Source of the DNA: an uncultured archaeon
Lineage (GTDB): Archaea; Asgardarchaeota; Heimdallarchaeia; Heimdallarchaeales; Heimdallarchaeaceae
Length of the DNA: 28,815 nt
Assembly (NCBI GenBank): GCA_964549075.1
Contig: CAZJUB010000001.1
Span: 1 to 28,815 of the forward strand
Reading direction: 5' to 3'
How positions within the stretch are numbered: the first letter of the stretch is position 1; each line of letters opens with the position of its first letter. Below are positions 25,914 to 28,815 of the stretch, in pieces. Both the position numbers and the translations under genes were made by a program. The notes below the pieces were generated by a model that had not been told where the DNA came from, searched no databases, and worked only from the letters and a program-made list of their open reading frames with translations.

Positions 25914-26951
25914 TTATTTGAAAACAATATTCAAATGATTCTCACATTTATTACAAGTACCAGTTAAGGAAATACGATGTAATTCTGTAGTTGTAGATGT
26001 TCTTTTTATCAAGAGAGAATTGCATTTAGGACAGTAGGTGTTATTTGCACGATGATCAGGGACATTATCAAGATAAACAAAGCTTAGACCAGCTTCTTTA
26101 GCTGCTTCATATGCTTCCTCTAACTCTTCTCTGGTTGTTGGATTTAGTTCTTTCAATCGGTGTGCAGGCAATAACCTTGCTAAATGCAGAGGTATATTTG
26201 GAGAAAGTTCTGTGATAATCCACTCTGCTAGTTTTCGTGCCTCTTCAGAACCGTTTCCTAGTCTTTTATGAATCACTAAATTGAGTTCAATGAGCTTATC
26301 TTTTTCATATATTAGCTTGATGATTTCTTTTATATGACTGAAACTTCCTCTCTGACAATTATCTTCGTATCCTTTGTCCGAAATTGATTTAACATCTAAA
26401 GTTACAGCATCTATGTATTCCAATATTTCTTCTACTGGTTCTTTATCAAAGTAACCATTTGTTCTAAGTAAAACTTTCAATCCTCTTTCTTGTGCTAATT
26501 TTGCTGAATCTCTTACCCATTCAAAAGAGATCAATGGTTCAGCTTCTCCAAAGCAAATCACTCTTGAACCCGATGCCATTCCAAACATTGCAACTTGATC
26601 TGGAGCCATTTTCTTACCTATAAATTGCTCAGGATCATGAAAGGCTTTTTCTGGCATAGGACAATAATCACAGTCTAAATTACAGTTATATGTAGAAAAT
26701 GTTTGAGCTCTTGAATTTGGTAAAAAGTGATAAACATGTTGTTTTTCAATCATATCAATTTTCATATCTGTAGCACCATATGTTAGAGAATATAACTTAC
26801 CGTCAATATTCTTTCGTGCTAAACATTTTCCTTTCTCTCCCACCAGTAAAGTACAATGGATTGGACATAATGTACACTTAACAACCTTGTTTTCTTCATC
26901 TATCAATTCAAAGTACTCTGCTTCATGTAATGTTTGTGACATCGGTTTCAT
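25914..26951 (-). CDS. AmmeMemoRadiSam (AmrS)-like radical SAM enzyme, divergent
   Basis: N-terminal CTLCPIHC..G.C.AR.N, IEK...HFLP, CNLDCDYC, RTNGY, PLH..R..P, GL.FVY..NV, NTYCPKC, distal CNKC. Confidence 0.88.
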   Translation of the reverse strand: MKPMSQTLHEAEYFELIDEENKVVKCTLCPIHCTLLVGEKGKCLARKNIDGKLYSLTYGATDMKIDMIEKQHVYHFLPNSRAQTFSTYNCNLDCDYCPMPEKAFHDPEQFIGKKMAPDQVAMFGMASGSRVICFGEAEPLISFEWVRDSAKLAQERGLKVLLRTNGYFDKEPVEEILEYIDAVTLDVKSISDKGYEDNCQRGSFSHIKEIIKLIYEKDKLIELNLVIHKRLGNGSEEARKLAEWIITELSPNIPLHLARLLPAHRLKELNPTTREELEEAYEAAKEAGLSFVYLDNVPDHRANNTYCPKCNSLLIKRTSTTTELHRISLTGTCNKCENHLNIVFK

Positions 26952-27126: not shown

Positions 27127-28272
27127 ATGTATTCTCTTTTTCGTAGAGATGTTATGACAATTTGGCAACAAGTTGAGCTGCAAAATAGACTTGTACAATA
27201 TCGAGAAATTTTCCAAGGTAAACGATTACCTAGATATAAACTTGCACGATTGTTTTATGTCTCTTTTGATAATTATGGAGATAAAAATGATTTAATGAGT
27301 ATTCATGAACATTTTCATCCAAAATTTGTCAAATGGTTGAAAGAAAAACAAACCCAACCTATAGAAGAAATTGAACAAGAAGTATTTTCTAATATTACAG
27401 AAAAAGAAATTGAACAAAATAATTATCTAAAACTTAAATCTGAATTACTGAATAATATGCTCTCTGCTTGTGAATTCTGTGAAAATAAGTGTAAAACAAA
27501 TCGATTTGAAGGGAAAGTTGGAAAATGTGGTGTAGATGGAGAAGCTTATGTCAGTTCAGCATTTATTCATATGGGAGAAGAAAGTCCCATAATTCCAAGT
27601 GGTACTATCTTCTTTTATGGTTGTACCATTAACTGCCAATTTTGTCAAAATTGGGATATTAGCCACACTTTTGACTTAGATAGGTTAAAAGGTAGAGGAA
27701 CATCAGCAGTGCAGCTTGCTGCTATGTTTTATTCTTTAGTTAAACAAAATGCTAGGAATATTAATTTTGTTGGGGGAGAGCCTACACCAAATCTACATAG
27801 AATAGTTGAAGCACTTCTTATCAGTCAAGTGAATGTTCCAATGTTATGGAACAGCAACATGTATCTAACTGAAACAAGCATGAAAATAATCTCAGATTTG
27901 TTTGACATCTGGCTTCCAGATATGAAATATAGTAACAACGAGTGCTCTCTCAAATATTCAAAAGCTCCAACTTATTGGGAAACATTACAACGAAACATGA
28001 AAATGATAGAGAACAGAGGAAGTGGAGAATACATAATCCGTCATTTAGTAATGCCAGCTCATACTAAATGCTGTTCAATACCTCTTTTAGATTGGATTAA
28101 TGAAAATTTAGAAACACCTCTAGTAAATATAATGTCACAATATCATCCTGATTACAGAGTTCTTCAAACAGATAAATTTCCAGAAATTGGAAGAAAAGTT
28201 ACTACAGGTGAAATGCATGAAGTTAGAAGTCATGCAGACAAATTAGGATTATTTTGGAAAAGCGTTTCTTAA
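27127..28272 (+). CDS. PflX-like radical SAM protein with N-terminal extension
   Basis: CEFCENKC..NR....G.C, HMGEE.PI.PSGTIFF.GCTINCQFCQNWDIS, NINFVGGEPTP, WNSNMY, DIWLPDMKY, IIRHLVMP.H..CC, NIMSQY.P. The start may be ATG 27154. Confidence 0.9.
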   Translation: MYSLFRRDVMTIWQQVELQNRLVQYREIFQGKRLPRYKLARLFYVSFDNYGDKNDLMSIHEHFHPKFVKWLKEKQTQPIEEIEQEVFSNITEKEIEQNNYLKLKSELLNNMLSACEFCENKCKTNRFEGKVGKCGVDGEAYVSSAFIHMGEESPIIPSGTIFFYGCTINCQFCQNWDISHTFDLDRLKGRGTSAVQLAAMFYSLVKQNARNINFVGGEPTPNLHRIVEALLISQVNVPMLWNSNMYLTETSMKIISDLFDIWLPDMKYSNNECSLKYSKAPTYWETLQRNMKMIENRGSGEYIIRHLVMPAHTKCCSIPLLDWINENLETPLVNIMSQYHPDYRVLQTDKFPEIGRKVTTGEMHEVRSHADKLGLFWKSVS

Positions 28273-28277
28273 TTGTT

Positions 28278-28766
28278 CTATTGAATACTCATGTCCCAAA
28301 GAAGTCTTTTAGTTGTGTTTCTCTCCCATGTATTCAAAGCACTTCTTGCTGCAATTGTTTCTGATAAGAACTTATGTTGAAAATCAGAGATGAAATCTAT
28401 TAATTTATCAATTTCAGCTACTTTTTCTAATAAGGCTTCTGAAATATAAAATGTAATAGAAAAACCTGGCTCAGGTTCTTTTTGAACTATTCCAGTTGAC
28501 TCATATAAAGCTAAACTTAGTCTTTTTAACAGCATATCATCAAAAGGATCTCTAAGTTCAAGAATTAGTGAAATCAAACTAGAATTTCTAGTTTTTTCTA
28601 TAAATCCATTTTTCAAAGGGAATTGCTTTAAATCCATTTCTCTACAATCTTTACAAATAACGCAGGGATAGTTTATTTGTCTATGAGGACAGATATAGCG
28701 TTCAAGCTTTAAAGCTGCTCTAATTTTTTCTTTATCGTCCATAAATTCAGAAGAAGTAGAACTCAT
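28278..28766 (-). CDS. ARPC4 (Arp2/3 complex subunit 4, p20-Arc)-like protein
   Basis: Collinear by-eye matches to human ARPC4 as recalled: IRAALKLERY~LQAALCLENF; FIEKTRNSSLISL~LIEGSINSVRVSI; DPFDDML~DEIEKIL; IVQKEPEPGFSITFYIS~ILRRKPVEGYDISFLIT; KLIDFISDF~KLVDFVIHF; RSALNTWER~KLSVNARAR. Similar length. Confidence 0.82.
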   Translation of the reverse strand: MSSTSSEFMDDKEKIRAALKLERYICPHRQINYPCVICKDCREMDLKQFPLKNGFIEKTRNSSLISLILELRDPFDDMLLKRLSLALYESTGIVQKEPEPGFSITFYISEALLEKVAEIDKLIDFISDFQHKFLSETIAARSALNTWERNTTKRLLWDMSIQ

Positions 28767-28815
28767 CACTTAACACAGAACGTGTTCGGTTTTTAATTTT
28801 TCTTTTGTCCTACTG

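Follow-up and report, generated by a model that had tools for sequence, protein, structure and literature searches.

How could a gene for a single subunit of the Arp2/3 complex serve an archaeon, and what would its product bind? The Arp2/3 complex builds branched actin networks, and the origin of this complex is the ground on which such a gene becomes of interest. We investigated an ARPC4-like gene near the end of a 28,815-base stretch of DNA (the window), which is the first part of a 106,609-base contig (CAZJUB010000001.1) of assembly GCA_964549075.1. The assembly comprises 3.23 Mb in 217 contigs, is 89.71% complete with 3.39% contamination and has a G+C content of 32%; the source organism is a Heimdallarchaeaceae-type Asgard archaeon. 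The gene lies on the minus strand and encodes 162 amino acids (aa) from an ATG at 28766 to a TAG stop codon at 28278–28280, as defined from the list of open reading frames (ORFs) and an identical database protein. The open frame as a whole covers 28278..28769 (−) and would yield 163 aa if translation began at the in-frame GTG at 28767–28769. Translation more probably starts at the ATG (28766), since close homologues all have 162–166 aa and the identical database protein has 162 aa. In addition to the latter, 47 further database homologues of 119–166 aa were found. PF05856 is precomputed on all 48, and where a name is present it is that of a hypothetical protein of Candidatus Heimdallarchaeota or Heimdallarchaeaceae.

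That ARPC4-like genes have been reported in Asgard archaea, as the preliminary description of this DNA noted, is stated in an excerpt of a 2020 article, according to which Asgard genomes contain an 'Arp2/3 complex subunit 4' (PMC7522288, citing Zaremba-Niedzwiedzka 2017). Excerpts of two later sources list ARPC4 among catalogue-matched clusters (a 2026 preprint) and mention putative ARP2/3 homologues in Hodarchaeales (a 2025 note). By its Asgard origin, its short single-domain form and its PF05856 match the protein is a member of this eukaryotic-signature family. A literature search, which had the supplements of Asgard genomics papers outside its scope, returned neither a study of the function of any archaeal ARPC4-like protein nor a reference to the neighbouring gene described below. 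The protein itself adds nothing new to the catalogued family; the conserved gene for a helical bundle located upstream of it is a modest addition.

We determined the relation to ARPC4 both from sequence and from predicted structure. The Pfam model PF05856 (ARPC4) matched the protein with 31.5 bits (E-value 1.6e-7, curated cut-off 22.2 bits) at residues 54–157. The matched part extends over model positions 60–165 of 167 and corresponds to 28299..28610 (−), which covers the alpha/beta core and most of the C-terminal helix. Searching the PDB sequences with phmmer aligned bovine ARPC4 collinearly, query residues 15–149 to chain residues 15–157, with an E-value of 0.004, and S. pombe ARPC4 with an E-value of 0.007. 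A profile built from an alignment of 22 archaeal ARPC4-like sequences (A1) reached 1e-11 against S. pombe ARPC4 (3dwl_F) and 1.2e-10 against bovine ARPC4 (1k8k_F), over profile positions 45–152. A scan of 1.84 billion cluster representatives yielded 18 relatives at an E-value of 0.001 or below, mostly 148–191 aa long and including two fragments and one 383-aa fusion. Among 16 distant archaeal representatives compared with the Pfam ARPC4 cut-off, 8 pass and another 2 have a match that falls short of it. The product of the gene is thus a genuine member of the ARPC4 (p20-Arc) family, PF05856, with a single domain.

Compared with eukaryotic ARPC4 (chain F of 1K8K, 1TYQ, 3DWL and 6W17) the archaeal protein is similar in length (162 versus 167–168 aa) and about 20–24% identical. 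Both consist of one alpha/beta globular domain followed by a long C-terminal helix, and N61-S62, D73 and a G-x-x-I-x-F-x-I strand are common to the archaeal and the bovine protein. An AlphaFold2 model built on A1, the monomer model that the preliminary description had proposed, reached a mean predicted local distance difference test (pLDDT) of 93.0 and a predicted template modelling score (pTM) of 0.84, and superposes on ARPC4 chains. In a Foldseek search against the PDB, ranks 1–9 were all taken by ARPC4 chains (E-values 1.3e-10 to 2.6e-8, template modelling (TM) scores 0.64–0.75, 154–156 columns). VIA, an aligner independent of Foldseek, placed model residues 9–158 on residues 10–167 of chain 1k8k_F with a Z-score of 15.9 and a root mean square deviation of 2.6 over 149 aligned residues; the TM-score between eukaryotic ARPC4 and the model is about 0.74. 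The next row of the VIA list, a type III secretion chaperone, had a Z-score of 4.9. The model therefore predicts an ARPC4 fold including the long C-terminal helix.

With a Pfam score above its cut-off, the profile E-value of 1e-11, Foldseek ranks 1–9 and the VIA superposition all pointing the same way, the homology to ARPC4 claimed in the preliminary description holds. Its further claim of a collinear match over the full protein of about 163 aa stands for one part only: the sequence can be aligned confidently to ARPC4 at residues ~45–157, and the first ~45 residues match in predicted fold only.

The C-terminal helix comprises model residues 129–158 (28293..28382, −), as delimited by the secondary structure of the model and the superposition on 1k8k_F, and contains the near-invariant W147, which aligns to an Arg in S. 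pombe ARPC4. Judged from the model, it is predicted to correspond to the helix of ARPC4 that forms an antiparallel pair with a helix of ARPC2. Foldseek ranks 10–28 were mostly ARPC2 chains with far weaker values (E-values 8e-3 to 7e-2, query TM-score (TMq) 0.33–0.53), and these matches would fit a fold common to both clamp subunits. ARPC2 (p34-Arc, PF04045, chain D) resembles the archaeal protein in having a globular fold plus a long C-terminal helix, but it has two such domains in about 300 aa, and its match is far weaker than that of ARPC4. A more distant likeness in the alpha/beta sandwich was found by VIA for class I chaperones of type III secretion (VecA, ExsC, InvB, SicP; Z-scores 4.2–4.9 over 93–105 residues). 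These values are within the range that VIA calls a common arrangement and are accompanied by no sequence signal, so the likeness is an analogy at the level of the fold only. Unlike the archaeal protein, these chaperones have neither the long C-terminal helix nor the four-cysteine motif described next. In SCOP the Arp2/3 subunits are placed in the 'secretion chaperone-like' fold, and type III secretion chaperones are dimers.

Conservation within A1 revealed a four-cysteine motif in the N-terminal loop, C26-x8-C35-x2-C38-x2-C41 (28644..28691, −), which is a candidate metal site. C26, P34, C38, C41, N61 and S62 are invariant, and C35, T59, D73, F125 and W147 are conserved in at least 90% of the sequences. 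We inspected 56 ARPC4-like ORFs from fetched loci and found the strict pattern in 50. Four others keep four cysteines with a different spacing or context as judged by eye, and the last two, both fused forms, read C-C-S-C-H. The motif does not occur in the aligned stretches of bovine and S. pombe ARPC4. It is the strongest signature of the archaeal family, and the four cysteines may hold a structural metal, most likely zinc.

Is the protein part of an Arp2/3 complex? We searched the genome with the models of the subunits ARPC2–ARPC5; the WD40 repeats of ARPC1 are too unspecific for such a search. ARPC2 (PF04045) had no match at an E-value of 10 or below, with two candidates scored, although controls remained empty as well so that the sensitivity of this search is unproven. 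ARPC3 (PF04062) had no match in the genome, and for ARPC5 (PF04699) there was only one of 10.5 bits (E-value 1.34), below the cut-off and with an internal stop. These absences hold at Pfam sensitivity for an assembly of the given completeness. An archaeal ARPC4-like profile detected one locus only in the genome and no second gene with an ARPC4/ARPC2 fold. That no other Arp2/3 gene is visible, as the preliminary description had it, is true of the window when Pfam is run on its ORFs, and for ARPC2, as for ARPC3 and ARPC5, the statement can be extended to the whole assembly at the same sensitivity. Because no ARPC2, ARPC3 or ARPC5 gene was detected, a seven-subunit complex is not expected. From gene content the protein would work without the rest of Arp2/3 and would be unable to sit in such a complex.

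Actin itself is present. Other contigs of the genome encode an actin that scores 448 bits and an actin-family paralogue of 485 aa that scores 191 bits. Within the PDB the paralogue is closest to actins and Arp1 and not to Arp2 or Arp3. It is encoded at L003:1285-2742 (+) on contig C10 and has long insertions and about 60 additional aa at the N-terminus, with two Cys pairs among them; only residues ~215–483 align to PDB actins and Arp1. Two ORFs contain two gelsolin domains each. The Pfam profilin model found nothing in the genome; the profilins of Asgard archaea generally diverge too far from it to be detected. No actin-family gene was located within the ARPC4-like loci examined.

The preliminary description left the DNA beyond 28815 for inspection. 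It contains no ARPC2 or actin gene upstream of the ARPC4-like gene, and instead a conserved gene for a helical bundle of about 150 aa lies there on the same strand, which is therefore a second candidate for the partner of the C-terminal helix. The window ends within the intergenic DNA between the two genes (28770..28815, −), which is near-identical to the intergenic DNA of loci L015 and L028. Exactly 100 N follow (contig 28816-28915, L005:817-916). As such a run occurs 27 times in the assembly (and one of 10 N 11 times), we regard this run as a scaffold gap. Past the gap the upstream gene begins on the same strand with its 58 N-terminal codons (L005:917-1090, −; contig 28916-29089), and this fragment aligns to the N-terminus of the helical protein of L015 with 47% identity. 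In all four salt-marsh DNA runs that hold the stretch, the gap is spanned by a 347-nucleotide (nt) contig with 287 letters in place of the 100 N. Together, 287 and 174 nt fit an intact gene of about 145–148 codons that ends about 20 nt inside the gap.

We then compared this arrangement between genomes. Among the other genomes of the same taxonomic family (f1), we examined 25 that have a full-length ARPC4-like gene; all 25 have an ORF of 146–151 aa immediately upstream of it, in the same orientation. By ORF calls the two genes are 33–163 nt apart, apart from one 23-nt overlap that results from an over-long ORF call, and the pair is kept in three genera with differing outer flanks (L034-L037). 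Ten loci came from another family of this order (f4). In 8 of them larger relatives of the helical protein, 245–270 aa long, adjoin the ARPC4-like gene: three are divergent, and the other five share its strand, four upstream of it and one downstream. The remaining two loci end at contig ends 235–268 nt upstream. Comparing the f4 relatives to the f1 helical protein with hhalign gave a probability of 86.9% and an E-value of 4.2e-6 over 54 columns, the N- and C-terminal helices being collinear around an insertion. That adjacency survives rearrangement is the best evidence for a functional link between the two genes and suggests selection for linkage.

In the model of the helical protein (pLDDT 85.5) six helices form a bundle, and confidence is low for the tail at residues 134–148; within this tail the f1 proteins share a conserved F-E-I-type C-terminal end. 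W43, R46, W116 and K119 are invariant. All 60 database homologues are unnamed Heimdallarchaeota or 'Asgard group' proteins without a Pfam domain. Searching 13 members against Pfam gave no family at a useful E-value (best single matches 0.0015–0.1, in one or two members each), and NCBIfam returned no family either. A profile search of the PDB sequences gave E-values of 0.49 and above only, Foldseek had no match at an E-value of 0.001 or below, and the ESM Atlas contained only archaeal clusters without a name (0.81–0.84). A designed helical bundle, the best VIA match (Z-score 8.7), was rejected as a fold relative because this value is within the noise for helical proteins. ARPC2, ARPC3 and ARPC5 do not occur in the family and fold lists obtained for the helical protein, and absence from these lists does not exclude them. 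About 3 kb from the gene pair a 95-aa cysteine-rich protein without a Pfam or NCBIfam family is encoded (L005:4151-4438, +). Look-alikes recognised by eye are located about 0.5 kb from relatives of the helical protein (L042:3949-4236, L043:3972-4259, L046:3896-4183); these belong to a family without an ARPC4-like gene and may be a remnant of older synteny.

The distribution of the ARPC4-like gene was assessed in a sample of 400 genomes of the phylum, 90 of them of high quality. The gene is common in the organism's own class (26/30 genomes of f1, 10/12 of f4 and 21/22 of f5) and occurs in several small-genome lineages; 305 of the 400 genomes have no match to the profile, including all members of f7 (0/12), f12 (0/19), f19 (0/14) and f20 (0/135). 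In the small-genome lineages the ARPC4-like domain is found between an N-terminal module of ATC-hydrolase/V4R type and a C-terminal tail rich in Cys and His. Such fused forms are P0057, L076:2294-3427 (−), L074:2264-3490 (−) and L075:1856-3160 (+). The module of P0057 matches PF14196 with 28.5 bits against a cut-off of 28.1, and in two fused forms one Cys of the four-cysteine motif is lost. A profile of the helical domain had no match inside seven extended or fused ARPC4-like ORFs. A database search for ARPC4-like proteins of greater length yielded a single one, of 803 aa, and missed the genome fusions of 370–436 aa, so this search was weak. The protein in question (P0127) carries precomputed ARPC4, FYVE, PF21098 and myotubularin-like phosphatase domains and may be a eukaryotic gene-model fusion. 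In two kin genomes of one genus, from another family of the class, the ARPC4-like gene is directly preceded, on its own strand, by a gene for a Roadblock/LC7 protein of 142 aa (PF03259, 37.9 and 40.8 bits; L053:2414-2842, +; L054:3556-3984, −).

At its 3' end the ARPC4-like gene is convergent with a radical S-adenosylmethionine (SAM) gene that ends at 28272, five bases off. The remaining ORFs of the window are housekeeping or metabolic genes: LonB, phosphoribosyl pyrophosphate synthase, a THUMP methyltransferase, a CCA-adding enzyme, glycosyl transferases, transporters and two radical-SAM enzymes. Class-V aminotransferases are also among the flanking genes. The two radical-SAM genes lie at 27127-28272 (+) and 25914-26951 (−) of the window, and one of them is AmmeMemoRadiSam-like with 215.4 bits, slightly below the cut-off of 220. 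A look-alike of the 381-aa radical-SAM protein, recognised by eye, is encoded in another family at L056:1068-2168, upstream of the ARPC4-like gene and on the same strand, and a LonB-like gene is located on the opposite side of the ARPC4-like gene in that locus. When comparing the upstream 80 nt of the gene by eye, we noticed an A/T-rich, TATA-like box 24–35 nt before the ATG (28790..28801, −). A similar box at a matching distance was recognised by eye in 26 of 26 f1 loci. By sequence it is probably the ARPC4-like gene's own promoter.

How might a lone member of the family work? In eukaryotes ARPC2 and ARPC4 build the core with their C-terminal helices, which run antiparallel, the pair contributes 60% of the buried surface on the mother filament, and isolated ARPC2/ARPC4 binds filaments with micromolar affinity; the globular domain of ARPC4 is homologous to the domains of ARPC2 (all from an excerpt of PMC9894260). 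By analogy we tentatively propose, at a chance slightly short of even, that the archaeal protein pairs through its C-terminal helix with a second chain and that the resulting small dimer binds the side of the actin filament as a regulator or anchor. The metal at the four cysteines would stiffen the N-terminal loop, and the exposed C-terminal helix would pair with a second helix as ARPC4 does with ARPC2. This helix would come from the protein's own copy in a homodimer, as the preliminary description suggested and which we consider somewhat likelier, or from the upstream helical-bundle protein. The dimer would not act as a branch nucleator, since an Arp2/Arp3 pair plus the other subunits is not present.

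The presence of actin, the actin-family paralogue and the two gelsolin-domain ORFs in the genome counts in favour of this proposal, and so does selection for the gene: a match to the ARPC4-like profile was found in 95 of the 400 genomes (21 of the 90 high-quality ones), nearly always in one copy. Several observations weigh against it. Actin was detected at an E-value of 1e-30 or below in 372 of the 400 genomes and in 89 of the 90 high-quality ones, and in f20 all 135 genomes have actin and none the ARPC4-like gene. Actin being far commoner than the ARPC4-like gene, it works without this protein in most of the phylum, and the protein is no general requirement or companion of Asgard actin. Pfam and NCBIfam scans of the ORFs detected no cytoskeletal gene in the neighbourhood of the ARPC4-like gene, and the ATC-hydrolase/V4R-type fusions point to sensing or regulation and not to a plain structural clamp. 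The same observations speak for a role away from actin, in which the protein would be a small metal- or redox-dependent adaptor, a sensor or a chaperone-like dimer that serves another client, and eukaryotes would have recruited the fold into Arp2/3 later. Further in line with it, the next structural neighbours after ARPC4 and ARPC2 are type III secretion chaperones (Z-scores 4.5–4.9), and the best-conserved feature is the four-cysteine motif and not a known actin-touching surface; even the Cys/His tail of the fused forms would suit such a role. The match to ARPC4 is, however, much closer than that to the chaperones (Z-score 15.9 versus 4.9) and covers the C-terminal helix specific to the clamp subunits, and the organism does have actin, an actin-related protein and gelsolin-domain proteins. 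We consider a role away from actin possible but on balance unlikely.

If the second chain is the helical protein, the two genes would form a two-gene module in which the neighbour gives the helix or surface that ARPC2 provides in eukaryotes. The constant position of its gene in the 25 f1 genomes, the adjacency in 8 of 10 f4 loci in three arrangements, the retention of the pair in three f1 genera with differing flanks, a gap size that fits an intact gene in the organism itself and the conserved F-E-I-type tail all argue for such a heteromer. The 25 f1 loci are, on the other hand, far from independent, as kin share gene order, and with its own TATA-like box the ARPC4-like gene does not need co-transcription. 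Relatives of the helical protein also exist without the presumed partner: a family with the ARPC4-like gene in 0 of its 12 genomes has them in 9. In families f2, f3 and f26 they are on other contigs than the ARPC4-like gene. Conversely, none of the 22 f5 genomes has a helical relative at an E-value of 0.001 or below although 21 have the ARPC4-like gene. Loci examined from 13 other families show no adjacency, and no fused ARPC4-like form holds a helical domain. We rate the heteromer, like a role away from actin, as possible but on balance unlikely. That it would in addition be stabilised by metal and bind actin filaments, with the F-E-I tail or the long helices of the helical protein docking on the C-terminal helix of the ARPC4-like protein, as a Heimdallarchaeial precursor of the ARPC2/ARPC4 clamp or a functional alternative to it, is distinctly improbable. 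Least probable by far is a fuller Arp2/3-like complex that includes the protein and has further subunits which Pfam misses because of their divergence. The 485-aa actin-family paralogue (191 bits) and an assembly that is 89.71% complete leave some room for it, but ARPC2 and ARPC3 had no match and ARPC5 reached 10.5 bits only, and the ARPC4-like profile, which is expected to sense an ARPC2-like duplicate, finds one locus. Moreover the PDB ranking of the actin paralogue shows no specific likeness to Arp2 or Arp3, and the ARPC4-like loci are without an actin-family gene.

Among the ARPC2–ARPC5 models searched, only ARPC4 matched here, and ARPC4 is also the subunit named for Asgard archaea in the literature excerpts cited above. 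A small dimer on the side of the actin filament is the reading that we tentatively favour. The binding partner of the lone archaeal protein, be it a second copy of itself, the helical neighbour, a metal or actin, would tell whether the filament-binding core of Arp2/3 predates eukaryotes.

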